Both the position numbers and the translations under genes were made by a program. Of a stretch of DNA of 64,000 nt, positions 29,879-63,921 are shown piece after piece; the first letter of the stretch is position 1; the number at the start of each line of letters is the position of its first letter. Source of the stretch: an uncultured Acidobacteriota bacterium (lineage in GTDB: Bacteria > Acidobacteriota > UBA6911); assembly GCA_963809485.1 (NCBI GenBank), contig CAWEJX010000012.1:78185-142184 (forward strand). Reading direction: 5' to 3'. Below the pieces are notes generated by a model. The model ran no database searches, was not told the origin of the DNA, and was given only the letters and a program-made list of their open reading frames with translations.

Positions 29879-32318
29879 ATGACGGCAGCAAATGAAAGTA
29901 AAAGGGAAGAGTCAAGGGACAACTGGCTCTGGCTCTGGAGACCCCCTGAAGGCGGCGATATCGGCCGCCGCGGCCTGCGGCCCAGAGAGGCTCCCGAGAA
30001 AGTAACGGGCAGAGCCGTTTATACCAATGACGTTTATCTTCCGGGAATGCTGTATGTGAAGGTTTACCGTTCTCCGTATGCCCACGCCAGGATCCGGAAG
30101 ATGGATACCAGCAAAGCCGAGGCTCTTCCCGGCGTCTGGGCCGTAATCCGATATGATGATCCGGATATCGATTTAAGCGATCCCTATAAACCCGTATTGG
30201 GTTTCATGTGGTTTTGGCATCGGAATTCCATTCTCCCGGATACCGCCGATTATCAGGGCGTCCGAGTAGGAGCGCTGGTAGTTGCCGAAAGCGAGGAAAT
30301 CTGCGATCAGGCTTTGAAATTGATCGGGGAAGGCATCGAGTGGGAGCAATTGCCTTTCATCCTGGACCCGGAAAAGGCGATCCAACCCGATGCGCCTCTT
30401 TTGCATCCGGAAATAAATCCCAAAAACAATATCTGGAAAGATGCAGTGATTCTCAACCAGGGTGACGTGGAGAAGGGATTTGCCTCATCCGACCATGTCA
30501 TCGAGTTCAGCGAGATCAAGAAGGAGGATGATGTCTGGGCCGGCGTGGAGCCCGGATGTATGGTTGTCCAATGGGTTGGCGACAATCTGGAATTCTGGTA
30601 TCACGGGCAAAGAATCGGGGTAGATGTAAATTTCATATCAGCTCCCGTGTTCAAAAACGATAAAAAGCAGCCGAAAAAAGTGAAAGCGCACACGCCTTTT
30701 AACGGCGCCACCTTCGGCGGAAATGCCATGGGTCTTGCCTGCTCATCTGGCCAGGTATGCGGCGATAGCAGCCAGGAAGACCATGCGTCCGGTCAAGGTT
30801 GTGGATGATTACGCCATGAGCTGGGAAGGCAACAGTTTTGAGACCGGAATTGCCCATTACAAGGTGGGCTTTAATAATGATGGAACCATTGTCGCCATCA
30901 AGATCGAAATCAACCAGAAAAACGGCCTTCCGATAACATCCAAGTTTATCGATACCTTGAAGACGCCGAATGTTTATGTGCATGCGATACATTCTTACTG
31001 GAGCAGACCCCATGAGTCCTGCTGGAAGGATGGCGCGGCCAATTGCACCCTTGTCAACCTGATAATCAATAAGGTAGCTGCCTGTTTGAACATGGACCCG
31101 ATAAAGGTGCAACTGCTCAACGATGGCGCCAGATGGGCATGATATGGCCTGGCTGGACGAACATGTCAAGAAGCCTTACGGAATGCCCCTCAGGGACAGC
31201 CTGAAGGAGGTTGTTGAAGCCGGCAAGAAAGCTTTCGATTGGGACCGGAAGTGGCATCCGCCGGGCACGCGCAGGCTCCCCAATGGCCGGATGCATGGTG
31301 TCGGTTTTTACGCGGTAGCCTGTTGGCATACCGGCGCCAGAAAGGGCGGCGTCCCAGGCATATCTATGGCGAGAGATGGAACGGCTACCATCTTTTACCG
31401 CCGCCCCGATTGCGGCCAGTCTGCCGCTACCACCTATTGCCAGATTGCGGCTGATGAGATCGGGCTGCGCTATGACGACGTTAAAATTGAGTTCATAGAC
31501 TACTTCTACTTTGATGCTGTTCCTCCCGCAGGTTCCATGGGTTCCAGCCTCAATACTTTCGGCCTTGTGGTCAATGCCCGAAAAATGAAGAGAGCTTCTC
31601 CTGGAATATGTTGTGAACCCTCCCATTGGGGCAATACGCGCCTATGGCAATGCAGTTCCACCGGTACTCATCCCTTTCCAGGGCAAAAAGGTTGAGGAAC
31701 TGGATATCAGGGACGGCGTCATCTTTGAGAAAGCCCATCCGGAAAACAAGCTGCCGGTAAGAAGAGTCACCTCATTGCTGCCGCGCGGATTGGAGGCAGC
31801 GGCAGAAGGAGGATCCTTTCTTCGTCGGCGACAAAGCTCCTGAGCTTCCCGAAGTTAAGGAGAAATATACATTGGCCCGGCAATGTGTTTTCGTCGAAGT
31901 CGAGGTTGACACCGAAACCGGACAGGTTGAGGTTATCAAGCTGGTCCATCCTTATGATGTAGGCCAGTCGCTGAATCCCGATGTGAATGACCAGCAACTC
32001 TACGGCGGTGCCTATCCGGGCGTAGGTGTCTCCGCCACTGAAGCCATCTATTATGATCCGCATACCGGAGTCAGGCTGAATGATAATCTGCTTGGTTATC
32101 CTGTTCTGACCATACTGGATGTCGGCGAGATTGAAGCTCCCATTGTAGAAACGCATCTGGGCTGGAGCGCCTATGGACTTTGCGGCTGCAGCGAAGCCGG
32201 TAAGGCGGCCACAGCCGCAGCGATACTGGTCCCCGCCGTTTATAACGCCATCGGAAAGTGGATTGAGGAAACCCCGGTTACGCCGGAAAGAGTTCTCAGA
32301 GCGCTGGGAAAAGCATAG
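29879..32318 (+). CDS. Xanthine dehydrogenase / CoxL-family molybdopterin-binding large subunit, copy L1; four +1 frame breaks near 30739, 31132, 31597 and 31817
   Basis: Five successive ORFs, each in the +1 frame relative to the previous one, are collinear with the paralogue at 32992..35407. Shared blocks include RGLRPREAPEKVTGRAVYTNDVYLPGMLY, VKVVDDYAMSWEG, WHPPGTRRLPNGRMHGVG, QCVFVEVEVDTETGQVEV and CSEAGKAATAAAI. Confidence 0.8.
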
Positions 32319-32363
32319 CAGAAATTGCCTTCTTTGCAGCTGTTGATAAAGGAGCCACAACTT

Positions 32364-32987
32364 ATGCTGGCAGAAAAAATAAAGAAAAGAGCAAAATCCG
32401 CCAAGATATCCAGCGGAAAACACCCTAAGGGAACTGCCTCTGCCGGCAAGGGCGTCACCGGCACCGGCACCACAGCCATAACTCCCATCGACGGAATACG
32501 AGTTCCTTTGACGATCAAGCCAAGAACGGTGAGGATCAAGGTAAATGGGAGAACATCTAGTCTCCATGTTGAGCCCAATTGGACTCTGCGGGATGTTCTA
32601 CGGCAAAAGCTGGGATTTACGTCGGTAAAGGATTTTTGTGGCGGCTATGGAGCCTGCGGCTCTTGCTGCGTCATCATGGATGGTCGGCCGGTCCTTTCAT
32701 GCATGACCCTGGCAGTTGATTGTGACGGGGCTGCAATCGAAACGGCGGAGGGCATCGCCGATGCCAAACATCCTCTGATTGAAGCCTACATTATGAATTG
32801 GACGGCTCAGTGCGGCTATTGCACTCCCGGCTTCCTCGTTACCGCCAAGGTACTGCTGGACCATAATCTCAATCCAACCGTGGAGGAGATCAAAGAAGCC
32901 CTGGCAGGAAATCTGTGTCGTTGCGGCACCTACCCGGCACACATCAAGGCTATCCAGGATGCGGCCAAAGTGCTGAGGGGGGAGTAA
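32364..32987 (+). CDS. [2Fe-2S]-binding small subunit of the XDH/CoxS family, with a Lys-rich N-terminal extension and no Tat motif
   Basis: CGGYGACGSCCV...SC is the plant-type cluster. AQCGYCTPGF...CRCGTY is the second cluster. Confidence 0.85.
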   Translation: MLAEKIKKRAKSAKISSGKHPKGTASAGKGVTGTGTTAITPIDGIRVPLTIKPRTVRIKVNGRTSSLHVEPNWTLRDVLRQKLGFTSVKDFCGGYGACGSCCVIMDGRPVLSCMTLAVDCDGAAIETAEGIADAKHPLIEAYIMNWTAQCGYCTPGFLVTAKVLLDHNLNPTVEEIKEALAGNLCRCGTYPAHIKAIQDAAKVLRGE

Positions 32988-32991
32988 TAAC

Positions 32992-35407
32992 ATGGCAGAG
33001 GAATCAATGGAAAAGCGGCCCTGGCTATGGAGGCCCCCCGAAGGCGGCTATATCGGCCGCAGAGGCTTGCGTCCCAAGGAAGCCCCTGAAAAGGTCTCGG
33101 GCAAAGCAGTGTATACAAGTGATGTTTACCTCCCGGGAATGCTGTATTTAAAAGCATTACGTTCCCCCTATGCCCACGCCAGGATCAAGAAGATGGATAG
33201 CGGCAAAGCGGAATCCCTCCCGGGCGTCTGGGCTGTGATCCGATACGACGATCCGGATATCGACTTCTCTGATCCCTATGAGCCCGTGATAGGGCGCTCA
33301 TGGTTTTGGTATCGGAACATTCTCCCGGATATTGCCGACTTTGAAGGTGTAAGGCTGGGAGCGATGGTGGTTGCCGAATCTGAGGAGATCTGCGATCAGG
33401 CTTTAAAGCTGATTGGGCGAAGGCATTGAGTGGGAACAATTGCCATTCATTCTGGATCCGGAGGAAGCCGTGAAATCTGGCGCTCCTCTCCTTCACCCGG
33501 AAAGAAATCCCAATAGCAATATCTTCGATGATGTGGTGACCTACAATATTGGTGACGTAGAGAAGGGATTTGCCTCATCCGACCATGTCGTCGAGTTCAA
33601 GTCGGTCAAAATTGAGGATGACGTCTGGGCCGGCGTAGAGCCCGGAAGCATCGTGGCGTGGCTGAAAGATGAGGAACTGGAAGTCTGGTACCACGGACAA
33701 AGAATTCCTGCGGACGTGAATTTTGTTGCAGCGCCCGTATTCAAAAACGATAAAAGCCGGCCCAAAAAAGTGAAGGTTCATACGCCCTATAACGGAGCGA
33801 CCTTCGGCGGCAATGCAATGGGATTGGTCGCCCAGCTGTGCCGATATGCAGTCATCGCAGCCAGGAAAACAGGGCGGCCGGTCAAGGTAGTGGACGATTA
33901 TGCCATGAGCTGGGAAGGCACCAGCTATGAGACCGGAACAAATCGTTTCAAGATAGGTTTTAATAACGACGGCACCATCGTTTCGATCAAAATTGACACC
34001 CTCCAGATAGCCGGCCATCCTCTGCCCAGCAAATTTGTAGATGCCATCAAAACCCCCAATATCCTGGTTCATGAAGTGCACAGTTATTGGAGCAAAGCCC
34101 ACGAGTCCTGCTGGAAAGACGGCGCCTCCAATTGCGTTCTTTCGAACCTGGTAATTAATAAAGTGGCGGCCCATCTGAATATGGACCCGATACAAGTGCA
34201 GCTGCTCAACGATGGCGCTCACGGGCATGATATGGCCTGGCTGAACGAAAATGTCAAGAAGCCCAACGGAATGCCGCTCAGGGACAGCTTGAAGGAAGTT
34301 GTCGAGGCGGGCAAGAAAGCTTTCGATTGGGACCATAAGTGGCATCCTCCGGGCACACGCAGGCTCCCCAATGGCAGGATGCACGGGGTCGGTTTTTATG
34401 CCGTGGGCTGCTGGCACACCGGCGCCAGGAAGGGAGGCGTTCCTGGCATATCCCTGGCGAGGGATGGTACGGCCACCATCTACTACCGGCGCACGGATTG
34501 CGGCCAGTCCGCTCCTTCTACCTATTGTCAGATTGCGGCTGATGAAATAGGGCTGCGCTATGAAGACGTCAAAATAGAATTCAAGGATTATTTCTATTTT
34601 GATGCGGTTCCCCCCATGGGTTCCATGGGCTCCAGTCTCAACACCTATGCTCTGGTGATGAATGCCAGGAGAATGAAGCAGCGCCTTCTGGAATATGCTG
34701 TCAAATTTCAAATGGGAGCCACGAACATCAATTACGGCGACAAGGTTCCGGCAACAGTCTCTCCGTTCCTGGGCAAAAATATTGAAGACCTGGATATCAA
34801 AGACGGCGTCATTTTTGAGAAAGCCCATCCGGAAAACAGGATGCCGGTCCGAAGAGTCGTCTCTTTTCGGCCTCGAGGCCTGGAATCGAATGCGGAAGTT
34901 GGAGAGTTCTTTGTCGGTGAAACTGCAGATGAACCTCCCATGGTGAAGGAACCCTTCAGTATGGGCCGGCAGTGCGTTTTCGTTGAAGTCGAGGTTGACA
35001 CCGAAACCGGACAGGTTGAAGTGACCCGACTGGTTCATCCTTACGACGTAGGCCAGTCGCTGAATCCCGATGTGAATGACCAGCAACTCCTTGGCGGGGC
35101 CTATTCCGGCGTAGGCGTCTCCGCCACGGAAGCCATCTACTATGATCCGCATACCGGGGTCAAGCTGAACGACAACCTGCTCGGCTACCCGATGCTGACC
35201 ATACTGGATATGGGCCCCATTGAGGCTCCCATCGTGGAAACACACGTGGGATGGAGCGCTTATGGACTTTACGGCTGCAGCGAAGCCGGCAAGGCGGCTA
35301 CAGCCGCAGCCATACTGGTCCCGGCCGTTTATAACGCGATCGGCAAGTGGATTGAGGAAACCCCGGTTACGCCGGAAAGAGTCCTTAGAGCGTTGGGAAA
35401 AGCATAA
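32992..35407 (+). CDS. XDH/CoxL-family molybdopterin large subunit, copy L2; one +1 frame break at about 33418
   Basis: ORFs 32992..33429 and 33413..35407 join as ...ALKLIG|EGIEWEQLPF... once base 33418 is removed. The protein is highly similar to L1 along its whole length. Confidence 0.85.
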
Positions 35408-35419
35408 GAGGTGATTCAA

Positions 35420-37807
35420 ATGAAGAGCCTAATGAAATTTGAGCATATCAATGCCGCCAGCCTGGATGATGCGGTCTCAATTCTGCGTCAATACGGGGAT
35501 AAAGCCTGGGTCCTCGCCGGCGGAACTGATCTGGTGGGCACCATGCGGTTTGAGGTGCTGCACGACTATCCTGAAGTTTTGGTCAATCTGAAGACCATTC
35601 CGGGACTGGACTATATTAAGGAAGAGAACGGCACTCTCAAGATAGGCGCATTGACCCGGCTGGAGGACATCGCCGCTCATTCCATCGTCCGGAGCCGCTA
35701 TGCAGCTCTTGCTGAGGCAGCTCACCGGACAGCTTCGCCCCATGTTCGTGCCATGGGCACCATCGGCGGCAATCTCTGCCAGCTTATTCGTTGCTGGTAT
35801 TTCCGGAAGGAGGAGAACCGATTTGACTGTATCCGGAAGGGTGGCGCCATGTGCCACGCCGTTATCGGAGACAATCGATACCACTCCATCTTCGGAGCTG
35901 CGAGGGTCGCGCCTCCTCCCTGCTCCTCAAATTGTCCGGCCGGAAACGACATTCCCTCTTATCTGAGCAGCATCCGGGACGACAACCTTGCGGAAGCGGC
36001 TCAAATACTGCTGAGTTCAAACCCGATGCCCGCTATCACGGGCAGAATCTGTCCCCATGCCTGTGAACAAAACTGCAATCGAAGAGATTTGGATGAAGCC
36101 CTCTCGATATGCTCTGTCGAACGTTTCGTGGGGGATTACATCCTCGATCACGCCGACCGGCTGTATCAGGCTCCCCGGAGAGAAAGCAAAAAGGGCGTGG
36201 CCGTTATAGGGTCCGGGCCAGCCGGTCTTTCCGCTGCCTATTACCTCAGGAAACTCGGCTACCGCGTGACCATTTTTGAAGCCAGGGAAAAAGCAGGCGG
36301 CGTCCTTACTTACGGCATCCCGCCTTACAGATTAGCCAAGGATGTGGTAAGCAGGCAGATTCAAGCCATTGAAAACACCGGGGTGCAGTTTAAGTATGGC
36401 GCTAAGGTCGGGAAGGACATCACTCTCGATGATCTTCAGAAAAGATATAGTGCTGTCTTCTGCGCCACAGGTGCCTGGAAGTCTTCCGTTCTGGGACTAC
36501 CGAACGAAGGGTTGCTGAACCGTGGTCTGGATTTCCTGGAGAAGATCAATAGCGGATTAAGAAAGATAAGCGCCAAAAAAATATTGGTGATAGGCGGAGG
36601 CAGTGTCGCCATGGATGTTGCGACGTCCGCTCTCCGCGCGGGGGCTCAAGAAGTTCTTGTGGCTTGTCTGGAATCCCGAGATGAGATGCCTGCCTTGCCC
36701 GGAGAAGTGGAGCAGGCAGTTAAAGAAGGCATAAAGCTGATGCCTTCATGGGGGCCTTCGCGTATCTTAAAAACCAAAGGCAAGCTCTCCGGGATGGAAT
36801 TGGTCCGATGCACTTCGGTCTATGACAGCGAGCATCGATTTGCTCCCGCCTATGATCGGGCGACCAAGAATACCGTGGAGGCCGACCAGATCATTCTGGC
36901 CGCCGGGCAAAGACCCAATTTGTCGTATGCCACATCGAGCTTGAATATGGACAGGGGCTTGATTGTTGTCGATCCCGACACCCAGGCCACCAGCATCGAC
37001 AAAGTGTTCGCCGGTGGAGATGCCACAATTTCCGGTCCCCTTTCCGTGGTGGCCGCCCTGGCGTCGGGACGACGGGCCGCAGAGGCGATCAATCATTTTC
37101 TTGGAAGCGGGCGTACTTTGGAGATTGAGAAGAAAGTGGAACATCTGACCCGCTGCGATGGCGAGTGCCTGGAAAAGTCCATCCGGGTTAAGGCACCGGA
37201 GCAACCTCCATCCGACTATTGCCTGGATAAAGAGGATGTTCTGGGACTGGATATAAAAGCCGTTGAGACGGAAGCCAAGAGATGTTTCAACTGCGGATGT
37301 GACGGAGTCAATCCGTCCGATATTGCACCTGCACTGATTGCTTTGGATGCCACGATTGTCACCTCCAAGAGAAAGGTAAAGGCGGACGAGTTCTGGGTTG
37401 CGGATAAAGGACTGAAGCCGACTATCCTGGATAACGATGAAATAATAACTGAGATCCGGATACCCCGGCCGGCTGCCAACGTGAAGAGCTCATTCCTCAA
37501 GTTCGCCATGAGGAAATCTATCGACTTTCCTATCGTAAATTGCGCAGCCGCCATAGAGAGCAAGGACGGAGTCGTTAAATCAGCCCGGATCTGCTTGAAT
37601 GCGGTATACAGCAATCCTTACCGTGTGACGAAAGCCGAAGATGCGATCATAGGAAAAACCATTGATGAGGCTATGGCCGAAGATGCTGGGGCAGGCGCGG
37701 TCTCTGATGCCATACCGCTGCCGTATAACAGGTTTAAAATCCAAATAGCCAAAACATTAGTCAAGCGAGCAATACTGGCCTGCAACAACGTTCAGGGCCA
37801 CGCATAA
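35420..37807 (+). CDS. CoxM/HcrB-type FAD-binding subunit with a nested GltD-like module (glutamate synthase small-subunit type: Fe-S plus FAD/NAD(P)H)
   Basis: Residues about 1-160 and 633-798 are collinear with the 321-aa FAD subunits at 47042 and 62956. Shared blocks include GGTDLVGTMRFEVL, CQLIRCWYFRKEENRFDCIRKGGAMC and VNPSDIAPALIALDATIVTSKR. The roughly 470 aa in between read CPAGNDIPSYL...NPMPAITGRICPHACEQNC...VAVIGSGPAGLSAAYYL...ILVIGGGSVAMDVA...FAGGD, which is GltD-like. Confidence 0.8.
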   Translation: MKSLMKFEHINAASLDDAVSILRQYGDKAWVLAGGTDLVGTMRFEVLHDYPEVLVNLKTIPGLDYIKEENGTLKIGALTRLEDIAAHSIVRSRYAALAEAAHRTASPHVRAMGTIGGNLCQLIRCWYFRKEENRFDCIRKGGAMCHAVIGDNRYHSIFGAARVAPPPCSSNCPAGNDIPSYLSSIRDDNLAEAAQILLSSNPMPAITGRICPHACEQNCNRRDLDEALSICSVERFVGDYILDHADRLYQAPRRESKKGVAVIGSGPAGLSAAYYLRKLGYRVTIFEAREKAGGVLTYGIPPYRLAKDVVSRQIQAIENTGVQFKYGAKVGKDITLDDLQKRYSAVFCATGAWKSSVLGLPNEGLLNRGLDFLEKINSGLRKISAKKILVIGGGSVAMDVATSALRAGAQEVLVACLESRDEMPALPGEVEQAVKEGIKLMPSWGPSRILKTKGKLSGMELVRCTSVYDSEHRFAPAYDRATKNTVEADQIILAAGQRPNLSYATSSLNMDRGLIVVDPDTQATSIDKVFAGGDATISGPLSVVAALASGRRAAEAINHFLGSGRTLEIEKKVEHLTRCDGECLEKSIRVKAPEQPPSDYCLDKEDVLGLDIKAVETEAKRCFNCGCDGVNPSDIAPALIALDATIVTSKRKVKADEFWVADKGLKPTILDNDEIITEIRIPRPAANVKSSFLKFAMRKSIDFPIVNCAAAIESKDGVVKSARICLNAVYSNPYRVTKAEDAIIGKTIDEAMAEDAGAGAVSDAIPLPYNRFKIQIAKTLVKRAILACNNVQGHA

Positions 37808-37827: not shown

Positions 37828-38046
37828 ATGCCCAAGCTATTGGTCAAAGTCTTTGGAGATCCCGGGGAGGACACATACGACCTGGAGGATGTGAGATACC
37901 TCTTTAATTTTGCCGACCAGATTGTTGTGGTTGATGGGCAGAACGTACGCTCCTATGACGAGCTTGCAAAAATCGTTTCCCAGGAAAAATACAGAGATCA
38001 GGAGTTTATTGAGGTAGTGCAGATACCGGCAACTACAGGCGGTTAG
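37828..38046 (+). CDS. Small ThiS/MoaD-like (ubiquitin-fold) protein ending in Gly-Gly
   Basis: The ORF is 72 aa and its C-terminus reads ...QEFIEVVQIPATTGG-stop. The size, the VVVDGQNV segment and the terminal GG are typical of sulfur-carrier proteins. Confidence 0.5.
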   Translation: MPKLLVKVFGDPGEDTYDLEDVRYLFNFADQIVVVDGQNVRSYDELAKIVSQEKYRDQEFIEVVQIPATTGG

Positions 38047-47041: not shown

Positions 47042-48007
47042 CTAAGCGCAGGCCAGTATCGCTTTCTTTACCATCCCCGCGGCGACCTGAATCTTCCACT
47101 TGTTCAGCGCCAGAGCCCTCGCTTCCGTGACCGCAACCGTGCCGGCCGCCTGCGCGCTCGCCACATCGATCGTCTTGCCCGCTATGGATTCCTCCGCTTT
47201 GGTCGCCCGGTAGGGTTTGTTATATACCGCATTGAGACATATCCGGGCCGTTCCGCCCCCAATGGCCGCCGCACAATTCACGATGGGAAAGTCTATCGAC
47301 GACCTCAGGGCAAACTTTACAAAGGCGCTTTTGACGCCGGAAGCCGGCGCGGGAACCTGAATCTCCTTTACGATTTCATCGTTCTCCAGCACCGTGGAAC
47401 GAGGGATCTTTACCGCCCAGAACTCCTCGGCGTTGAGGGTTCTCTTCGACGTCACGATCCTGGCATTTAAAGCGACCAGCGCCGGCGCCGTGTCGCTTGG
47501 ATTCACAGCCATGCAGGCTGAAACACCCCCGAATATCGAGTGATATCGATTCTCCCCGGCCATGGCAAAGCACGCTTTGCCGCCTTTCCTGATACAGAAA
47601 AACCTGTTGTCGTGAAGCCGGAAATACCAGCATCGATTCAGCTGGCAGATGTTGCCGCCGATCGTCCCCATTTCCCGGATGTGCGGCGAAGCGGTCTTAT
47701 GGGCCGCCTCCGACAGCGCCGTCCATTTGCTTTTGACCACACTGCTCTTCGCAATGTCCTCGAGCCGGGCCAATGCGCCAATCCGCAGCATGCCCTTTTC
47801 TTCTTTGATGTAATCCAGGCTTGGCGTAATGGTCTTGAGGTTTACCAGAATCTGAGGATACATGGCATCCGGGAGTACCTCAAACCTCATGGTTCCCACA
47901 AGATCGGTGCCCCCGGCAAGTGCCCAGGCATTGGCTGCACGCAGGGCCGACACCGCCTCTTCTACCGTCTTGGCATTGACACGGGTGAATTTCTTTACGG
48001 TCTTCAT
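47042..48007 (-). CDS. CoxM/PaoB/HcrB-type FAD-binding medium subunit with a 4-Cys loop
   Basis: The ORF is 321 aa, with GGTDLVGTMRFEVL (FAD_binding_5-like) and CQLNRCWYFRLHDNRFFCIRKGGKAC, a four-Cys insertion as in [4Fe-4S]-bearing HcrB/PaoB. It is about 99% identical to 62956..63921. Confidence 0.8.
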   Translation of the reverse strand: MKTVKKFTRVNAKTVEEAVSALRAANAWALAGGTDLVGTMRFEVLPDAMYPQILVNLKTITPSLDYIKEEKGMLRIGALARLEDIAKSSVVKSKWTALSEAAHKTASPHIREMGTIGGNICQLNRCWYFRLHDNRFFCIRKGGKACFAMAGENRYHSIFGGVSACMAVNPSDTAPALVALNARIVTSKRTLNAEEFWAVKIPRSTVLENDEIVKEIQVPAPASGVKSAFVKFALRSSIDFPIVNCAAAIGGGTARICLNAVYNKPYRATKAEESIAGKTIDVASAQAAGTVAVTEARALALNKWKIQVAAGMVKKAILACA

Positions 48008-62955: not shown

Positions 62956-63921
62956 CTAAGCGCAGGCCAGTATCGCTTTCTTTACCATCCCCGCGGCGAC
63001 CTGAATCTTCCACTTGTTCAGCGCCAGAGCCCTCGCTTCCGTGACCGCAGCCGTGCCGGCCGCCTGCGCGCTCGCCACATCGATCGTCTTGCCCGCTATG
63101 GATTCCTCCGCTTTGGTCGCCCGGTAGGGTTTGTTATATACCGCATTGAGACATATCCGGGCCGTTCCGCCCCCAATGGCCGCCGCACAATTCACGATGG
63201 GAAAGTCTATCGACGACCTCAGGGCAAACTTTACAAAGGCGCTTTTGACGCCGGAAGCCGGCGCGGGAACCTGAATCTCCTTTACGATTTCATCGTTCTC
63301 CAGCACCGTGGAACGAGGGATCTTTACCGCCCAGAACTCCTCGGCGTTGAGGGTTCTCTTCGACGTCACGATCCTGGCATTTAAAGCGACCAGCGCCGGC
63401 GCCGTGTCGCTTGGATTCACAGCCATGCAGGCTGAAACACCCCCGAATATCGAGTGATATCGATTCTCCCCGGCCATGGCAAAGCACGCTTTGCCGCCTT
63501 TCCTGATACAGAAAAACCTGTTGTCGTGAAGCCGGAAATACCAGCAGCGATTGAGCTGGCAGACGTTGCCGCCGATCGTCCCCATTTCCCGGATGTGCGG
63601 CGAAGCGGTCTTATGGGCCGCCTCCGACAGCGCCGCCCATTTGCTTTTGACCACACTGCTCTTCGCAATGTCCTCGAGCCGGGCCAATGCGCCAATCCGC
63701 AGCATGCCCTTTTCTTCTTTGATGTAATCCAGGCTTGGCGTAATGGTCTTGAGGTTTACCAGAATCTGAGGATACATGGCATCCGGGAGTACCTCAAACC
63801 TCATGGTTCCCACAAGATCGGTGCCCCCGGCAAGTGCCCAGGCATTGGCTGCACGCAGGGCCGACACCGCCTCTTCTACCGTCTTGGCATTGACACGGGT
63901 GAATTTCTTTACGGTCTTCAT
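62956..63921 (-). CDS. CoxM/PaoB/HcrB-type FAD-binding subunit, second copy
   Basis: The ORF is 321 aa and differs from 47042..48007 at only 3 residues (T/A, I/V, V/A). Confidence 0.8.
   Translation of the reverse strand: MKTVKKFTRVNAKTVEEAVSALRAANAWALAGGTDLVGTMRFEVLPDAMYPQILVNLKTITPSLDYIKEEKGMLRIGALARLEDIAKSSVVKSKWAALSEAAHKTASPHIREMGTIGGNVCQLNRCWYFRLHDNRFFCIRKGGKACFAMAGENRYHSIFGGVSACMAVNPSDTAPALVALNARIVTSKRTLNAEEFWAVKIPRSTVLENDEIVKEIQVPAPASGVKSAFVKFALRSSIDFPIVNCAAAIGGGTARICLNAVYNKPYRATKAEESIAGKTIDVASAQAAGTAAVTEARALALNKWKIQVAAGMVKKAILACA

Follow-up and report, generated by a model that had tools for sequence, protein, structure and literature searches.

Why would the flavin adenine dinucleotide (FAD) subunit of a xanthine dehydrogenase (XDH)-family enzyme carry a second flavoprotein module in its interior, and which way would electrons run through it? 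The question is raised by a gene at positions 35411 to 37807 of a 64,000-nucleotide stretch of DNA, referred to here as the window, from an uncultured Acidobacteriota bacterium of the UBA6911 lineage (assembly GCA_963809485.1, contig CAWEJX010000012.1, positions 78,185 to 142,184 of the forward strand). The reading that we hold with moderate confidence is that its product is the FAD subunit of a three-subunit molybdenum (molybdopterin cytosine dinucleotide, MCD) enzyme of the XDH family, in which an NAD(H):Fe-S cassette inserted into a loop would form a linear wire from reduced nicotinamide adenine dinucleotide (NADH) to Mo, likely an input for reduction. An initial annotation of the window had described the nested arrangement and was aware of no characterised example. 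That view is out of date, since UxdC, a subunit of the gut 10-hydroxy-urolithin dehydroxylase UxdFOC, shows the architecture (PMC12658268), and the window gene adds one member to a widespread family.

Mapping of the gene and its product gave the following layout, with residues numbered along the full open reading frame (ORF).

35411 to 37807, plus strand: two-flavin FAD subunit gene, a stop-free 798-aa ORF from GTG (Pfam and NCBIfam mapping)
35411 to 35896, plus strand: host N-half, residues 1-162, with the FAD-binding domain and the first three predicted host-cluster ligands
35897 to 37297, plus strand: nested cassette, residues 163-629, a GltD/NfnB-like module of StnC/PRK12771 type (phmmer and Foldseek)
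35915 to 36145, plus strand: Fe-S helical domain of the cassette (Fer4_20), residues 169-245, with C171, C175, C214, C218, C222 and E237
36197 to 37069, plus strand: FAD and NAD(P)H Rossmann domains of the cassette (Pyr_redox_2), residues 263-553
37118 to 37297, plus strand: tail of the cassette, residues 570-629, ending ...AVETEAKRC625FNC628G, which corresponds, after permutation, to the 'RCxxC' segment at the N-terminus of GltD
37298 to 37807, plus strand: host C-half, residues 630-798, with C630, the remaining FAD-binding domain, CO_deh_flav_C and the stop codon

Translation probably begins at the ATG at 35420, for a product of 795 aa, because homologues (785-797 aa) begin MKSLMKF. In Pfam, the outer portions matched FAD_binding_5 (residues 9-124 plus a second stretch, E 2.4e-36) and CO_deh_flav_C (residues 696-789, E 4.5e-15), and the interior matched Fer4_20 (residues 169-245, E 1.6e-22, profile positions 30-109) and Pyr_redox_2 (residues 263-553, E 6e-31). 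Among NCBIfam models, PRK12771 'NAD(P)-binding protein' spans residues 167-630 (E 6.5e-130), the gltA, GltD and YgfK models also match, and the HcrB model TIGR03195 matches the fused protein in two separated stretches. These mappings support the anatomy first proposed, a GltD/NfnB module inside an XDH FAD subunit at 35897-37306 (residues 163-632 of the 798-aa ORF). All of the motifs listed at that time are present, namely CSSNCP...IP, NPMPAITGRICPHACEQNC, GSGPAGL (267-273), GGGSVAMD (395-402), AGGD (534-537) and a four-cysteine loop in the host; the cassette also has ACLESR at 418-423.

The window encodes two 321-aa FAD subunits (47042-48007 and 62956-63921, both on the minus strand), with which both ends of the fused protein are collinear at 67% identity. 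Relative to these subunits, approximately 467 residues, close to the 470 of the initial annotation, stand in place of the 4-residue linker 'GVSA', between ...NRYHSIFG and C-x-x-VNPSD. The AGGTDL and TIGGN motifs of the host FAD site are kept, with G37, G38, D40, T117, G120 and N121 invariant among homologues. To map the host-cluster ligands, the protein was aligned to PaoB (5g5g_B), 5y6q_B and HcrB (1rm6_B), the last of which aligns with the host halves. The PaoB loop has exactly four cysteines, and these align with C128, C140, C148 and C630, the cysteine before xxVNPSD, which we predict to be the ligands of the host cluster. By this alignment the host [4Fe-4S] loop is split, with the cassette lying between its third ligand, C148, and its fourth, C630; the loop that had been recognised earlier is retained, but it is not uninterrupted. 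C128, C140 and C630 are kept in 95/95 nested homologues and C148 in 94/95, and C630 is also found in 17/18 plain FAD subunits. In contrast, C123 is an extra, non-ligand cysteine kept in only 86/95 nested homologues. Judged by its sequence, the fused protein is an HcrB/PaoB-type FAD subunit of the XDH family. PaoB (Escherichia coli PaoABC, 5G5G) and 5Y6Q_B share the four-cysteine [4Fe-4S] loop and have a 'GVSxAC' linker similar to that of the 321-aa paralogues, but they belong to periplasmic or oxidative enzymes and have no cassette.

What kind of module occupies the loop? Residues 168-630 align end to end with 9bov_A (101-568), 8oh5_C (101-568) and 9n5u_A (phmmer, E 1e-78 to 5e-91), and the alignment includes the C-terminal '...EAxRCxxCGC'. 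These proteins, StnC of the Sporomusa ovata Stn transhydrogenase (8OH5) and NfnA of NfnABC (9BOV, 9N5U), are the best sequence and fold matches to the cassette. Fold matches extend to NfnB/NfnL, GltD and the N-terminal domain of DPD at TM 0.77-0.79 (for NfnL 5jca_L, Foldseek gave TM 0.79 with a root-mean-square deviation of 2.7 Å), all of which also have a two-[4Fe-4S] helical domain with a Glu or Gln ligand, an FAD and an NAD(P)H site. The RCxxC segment, however, is N-terminal in NfnB, GltD and DPD, whereas in the window protein it stands at the C-terminal end of the module. The cluster motifs of NfnB are RCx2Cx4Cx3CPV and GRVCP..Cx3Cx13Gx2ER (PMC6405883), and when the end of the cassette (RC625FNC628G) is joined to its start (PPPC171SSNC175P), the result is exactly RCx2Cx4Cx3CP.

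For a direct test of this permutation, the tail (residues 570-629) was placed before the cassette body and the product was rescored with Fer4_20, with reversed and shuffled tails as null controls. The window protein scored 79.3 bits in its native order (profile positions 30-109) and 97.1 bits (+17.8, positions 11-109) with the tail moved in front, and neither the reversed tail (74.4 bits, positions 30-109) nor the shuffled tail (77.8 bits, positions 14-109) gave any gain. UxdC behaved in the same way, rising from 68.8 bits (positions 31-111) to 87.2 bits (+18.4, positions 5-111). This rise in score indicates that the cassette, which is of the StnC/NfnA(Bfu)/PRK12771 type, is circularly permuted relative to GltD. 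The homology to GltD that the initial annotation pointed to is thus upheld, but the module is not a plain GltD. Nesting of such a module is also seen in StnC, where it occupies residues 102-565 within an Fe-S host domain that is NuoG-like (PMC10482914), and in stand-alone PRK12771-type proteins the module is flanked by two ferredoxin half-motifs. The host differs, being a NuoG-like or ferredoxin domain in StnC and NfnA and an XDH FAD subunit in the window protein.

The seven cysteines and E237 of the cassette are all kept in 95/95 nested homologues from many phyla, and these eight residues should suffice for two [4Fe-4S] clusters. By homology with NfnB, DPD and StnC, the cluster adjoining the cassette FAD (proximal) would be held by C175, C214, C218 and E237, and the distal cluster by C171, C222, C625 and C628. 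The second Cys of the NfnB motif, Cys42, binds the distal cluster (PMC7596348), and in StnC, K170 ligates the FAD-proximal cluster C7 of a cluster chain C7-C6-C5 (PMC10482914). E237 aligns with StnC K170 and with the NfnB Glu ligand; the corresponding ligand is a Gln in DPD (nFeS2) and a Glu in GltS (PMC8097209). StnC and NfnA thus differ from the window protein in having Lys where it has E237.

Could the cassette bifurcate or confurcate electrons, as the initial annotation had also considered? In such a molybdoenzyme, the cassette FAD would split the electron pair of NAD(P)H, so that Mo received one low-potential electron through the cluster chain and a second acceptor took the other. The Glu ligand is a hallmark of NfnB, and both E237 and R307, the equivalent of the Arg near the flavin N5, are kept in 95/95 nested homologues; StnC and Bfu-type NfnA, which have Lys at the Glu position, are non-bifurcating. 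A Glu or Gln also stands at this position in GltS and DPD, however, and both are non-bifurcating (PMC8097209). The ligands moreover predict that the clusters form one linear chain, and neither the operon here nor the related loci encode a high-potential partner resembling NfnA ([2Fe-2S]/FAD). We found no positive evidence for confurcation and regard a bifurcating design as improbable. It is just as improbable that the family comprises the first bifurcating or confurcating molybdenum hydroxylase-family enzymes, in which NADH would supply a very low-potential electron for Birch-like aryl dehydroxylation and the second electron would pass to another acceptor.

The nucleotide used by the cassette can be predicted from one short motif. 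In NfnB, Y-R-R holds the 2'-phosphate of NADPH, and among DsrL enzymes those with YRR are restricted to NADP(H), whereas those lacking it use NAD(H) (PMC7596348). StnC and NfnA carry YRR, so they use NADPH, but in the window protein YRR is absent and ACLESR stands at the aligned position. Because CLE replaces YRR, we predict, by analogy with DsrL-1, that the window protein uses NADH rather than NADPH. Among the 95 nested homologues, 62 are of the C-L-E type, UxdC included, and 32 of the YRR type, which suggests that the family has two nucleotide sub-types, NADH and NADPH. The notion of a built-in NAD(P)H wire fits what is known of GltD-like modules, which hand NAD(P)H electrons on to a partner domain by way of low-potential [4Fe-4S] clusters (PMC8097209), with NADH as the more likely nucleotide here.

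A fused protein known from a single draft assembly might be two genes joined in silico, and neighboring genes of this assembly do carry single-base indels. The gene itself has a compensating pair of single-base indels at 36929-36933 relative to its same-genus orthologue, which lies at about residue 507 in a variable surface segment and keeps the frame. Both junctions of the cassette, however, are in frame with invariant Cys ligands, and a continuous ORF of about 790 aa recurs in more than 120 independent clusters. The best 120 of 4799 matches are all approximately 785-797 aa with the same Pfam set and 58-97% identity, and an exhaustive HMMER search added about 28 full-length representatives at 36-50% identity. 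In a scan of species-representative genomes, at least 577 loci encode the fused protein. Carriers among the matches listed belong to Chloroflexota, Acidobacteriota, Thermodesulfobacteriota, Bacillota, Actinomycetota, Elusimicrobiota, Spirochaetota, Myxococcota and Bathyarchaeia; the Bacillota include complete genomes of cultured Lachnospiraceae (Enterocloster, Hungatella and Schaedlerella), and further carriers are Desulfatiglans, Syntrophorhabdus and human-gut Lachnospiraceae, with the Chloroflexota carriers coming from the subsurface. Within the genus, 11/18 genomes have the gene, the best of them intact at 92% identity. Because the architecture is conserved across genomes, an assembly or annotation artefact is refuted to the point of being hardly conceivable, and the join across which the initial annotation had wanted to see reads is not a product of assembly.

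The same survey ties the nested subunit to the other two. Of 55 related loci with enough flank, 52 have a Mo-subunit gene immediately upstream, and all 55 have a 2Fe-2S subunit gene within 6 kb. One metagenomic protein of 1730 aa (P0128) has a Mo large subunit fused in front of the nested FAD subunit, and this fusion offers independent evidence that the two subunits work together. In a Dehalococcoidales genome (GCA_016926695.1, L001 12450-15746), an operon in the order S, L, nested FAD is followed by glutamate-mutase-like genes (MutL, B12-binding and Met_asp_mut_E), neighbors that may hint at the substrate class in that lineage.

The closest system of known function is UxdFOC. The uxdFOC genes of Enterocloster asparagiformis, expressed in C. 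sporogenes, confer urolithin 10-dehydroxylation, and the additional 4Fe-4S and FAD/NAD(P) domains of UxdC were noted in 2025, when an AlphaFold3 model set two FADs at opposite ends (Pidgeon et al. 2025, NPJ Biofilms Microbiomes 11:220; PMC12658268). A 2021 review of GltD-like modules names GltS, DPD, Nfn and AegA and no XDH fusion (PMC8097209). In E. asparagiformis DSM 15981, ucdCFO is followed by a 2.6-kb gap and then uxdF-uxdO-uxdC at about 3.04 Mb, in the order given in PMC12658268. UxdC (G001:C1:3045511-3047931) and the window protein share 43-45% identity over residues 3-791 (E 4e-211), along with the domain order (FAD_binding_5, then Fer4_20 and Pyr_redox_2, then CO_deh_flav_C), the permuted tail and CLE in place of YRR. 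The Uxd genes also share the order 2Fe-2S, Mo and FAD subunit with the window operon. The window operon differs in its two tandem Mo subunits (L1 and L2), and the carrier of Uxd is a gut Lachnospiraceae, whereas the window organism is an environmental anaerobe. Three nested-type genes occur in E. asparagiformis DSM 15981. A second uxd-like FOC operon, followed directly by a ucd-like CFO operon, lies at L042 5221-14723, and the third nested gene is at 4.13 Mb. Two candidates were set aside in this comparison: the L042 locus (C. asparagiforme, 1.47 Mb) as uxd itself, as its gene order, FOC then CFO, does not match PMC12658268, and UcdC as a known example of the architecture, as this FAD subunit is plain and lacks the 4Fe-4S loop as well.

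The partners of the window protein are encoded directly upstream of its gene, together with a paralogue of the large subunit:

29879 to 32318, plus strand: paralogous Mo large subunit L1, broken by single-base insertions at 30741, 31134, 31595 and 31820
32325 to 32987, plus strand: 2x[2Fe-2S] small subunit (S) of the same operon (Pfam Fer2 and Fer2_2)
32992 to 35407, plus strand: Mo/MCD large subunit L2, directly upstream of the fused gene, in two frames owing to one extra base at 33415

L1 is approximately 77% identical to L2. A 72-aa ORF lies directly 3' of the fused gene (37828-38046), and a related metagenomic contig likewise has a 72-aa gene there. The nearest solved structure to the L2 orthologue is the alpha subunit of 4-hydroxybenzoyl-CoA reductase (4-HBCR; 1rm6_A, E 1.3e-36, 129 bits), and the next scores 105. 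The 4-HBCR equivalog models miss (TIGR03195, 166.5 bits against a cut-off of 404.55; TIGR03194, 165.6 against 994.55), XdhA-type models score as well on L2 as HcrA models, and partial alignments give about 27-34% identity between L2 and UxdO. Because of this low identity, the substrate almost certainly differs from that of Uxd.

With these partners in place, electrons would be expected to pass from NADH to the cassette FAD, through the proximal and then the distal cluster to the host [4Fe-4S] cluster, and from there through the host FAD and the two [2Fe-2S] clusters to Mo. A useful comparison is 4-HBCR (HcrCAB of Thauera aromatica, 1RM6), likewise an XDH-family enzyme, in which the HcrB [4Fe-4S] loop serves inverted (reductive) electron flow. 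HcrB, unlike the window protein, has no cassette and receives its electrons from soluble ferredoxin. In the proposed wire, the distal cluster, which is the ferredoxin-reducing end in NfnB, would be plugged in at the point where 4-HBCR accepts electrons from ferredoxin, and a covalent link would replace the soluble carrier. With less certainty, we suggest that the direction is one of electron input for a reductive reaction, e.g., aryl dehydroxylation as in UxdFOC. This direction is favored because the Uxd precedent is reductive and because the nearest solved structure to the L2 orthologue is 4-HBCR alpha. The reductive, 4-HBCR-like reaction first guessed for this locus accordingly matches the one member of known function.

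The architecture does not, however, fix the direction, and electrons could instead leave through this wire to NAD+. In that case the Mo site would oxidise or hydroxylate a substrate such as an N-heterocycle or an aldehyde, and the cassette would reduce NAD+, standing in for the site at which classical xanthine dehydrogenases reduce NAD+ directly. In favor of this reading, most members of the XDH family catalyse oxidations, and XdhA-type models match L2 as well as HcrA models do. GltD-like modules are moreover reversible in vitro, DsrL reduces NAD+, and the CLE (NAD-type) motif would suit NAD+ as an acceptor, the NAD pool being kept oxidised in cells (PMC7596348). An oxidative, NAD+-reducing enzyme is therefore a serious rival. 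We nevertheless judge it unlikely, as Uxd is reductive, the structure nearest to L2 is that of a reductive enzyme, and the host loop is the one used by 4-HBCR for inverted flow. Several further points weigh against an NADH-to-Mo input wire. The electron path is inferred for every member of the family, and Uxd itself was tested in whole cells only (PMC12658268). Passage through Glu-ligated and probably very low-potential clusters would be uphill from NADH. L2 is distant from UxdO and far below the 4-HBCR cut-offs, and its chemistry may differ. Finally, the AlphaFold2 model (mean predicted local distance difference test score, 77.6) falls below 50 at residues 135-174, 220-231 and 625-634; it is unreliable in exactly the Fe-S loops, so the geometry of the clusters follows from sequence homology alone.

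A last point on the same side is that both Mo-subunit genes are frameshifted in this assembly, so does the locus yield a functional complex at all? A same-genus genome (G007) with 93.6% DNA identity over the region keeps intact L1 (about 820 aa), S, L2 (809 aa) and fused genes. Relative to it, the window has five single-base insertions, four in L1 and one in L2, and the fused gene itself is intact. These differences from intact orthologues would be expected if the operon were decaying, with L1 and L2 as pseudogenes beside an intact FAD gene and no functional complex from the locus. About 9 of the roughly 30 Mo-subunit loci in the genome also look fragmented, as in birth-and-death evolution of an expanded family. 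All five changes, however, are +1 insertions in otherwise well-conserved sequence, with no deletions or nonsense changes, and the affected genes have close paralogues, which is how long-read errors look when repeated families go unpolished; the genome is 95.7% complete. Decay is possible, if doubtful, and we lean toward unpolished assembly errors rather than real pseudogenes.

The expansion of the XDH family in this genome is itself very large. The roughly 30 Mo-subunit loci are spread over contigs of the 21-contig assembly (e.g., C4, C6, C8, C12, C19 and C20), and about 11 plain HcrB/PaoB-type FAD subunits of 320-345 aa share 61-69% identity with the host N-half. The genome also has another nested-type FAD subunit gene (C10:28431-30765, L092), which is 37-48% identical and broken by stops or frameshifts (TGA, TAA). 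In the same genome, we found no clear adjacency of a stand-alone cassette gene to a plain XDH operon.

How often has the cassette been gained or lost? A tree was built from the host halves only (113 rows), and in it plain loop-bearing FAD subunits, including about 10 paralogues from the window's own genome, are interleaved with nested ones. Well-supported branches of this tree force at least 4 changes of state between cassette presence and absence. The approximately unbiased (AU) test rejects the plain rows as one group, a group named after the tree had been seen (delta lnL 124, p 0.0009). When the tree is rooted with HcrB, PaoB and 5Y6Q_B as outgroups, own-genome plain paralogues lie deep inside nested clades, which favors secondary loss of the cassette, on a sparse sampling of plain subunits. 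In a tree of the cassettes, the 95 nested ones and 7 from other contexts (PRK12771- and StnC-like) share one side of a 100%-supported branch. StnC-like cassettes fall inside this group, so a clean single origin of the cassette is neither shown nor excluded.

Taken alone, the window gene is an ordinary additional member of its family. The family is wide, and function is known for Uxd alone. The present analysis contributes a map of the predicted ligands, the circular permutation, a predicted split of the family into NADH and NADPH sub-types, and a history in which the cassette has come or gone several times. All four give concrete starting points for mutagenesis, and they could guide the annotation of the hundreds of proteins labelled 'FAD binding domain-containing'. 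Should the cassette prove to be an NADH input wire, its carriers would be self-contained, ferredoxin-independent reductases, which could account for the dehydroxylation or other reduction of aromatic and phenolic compounds by many anaerobes.

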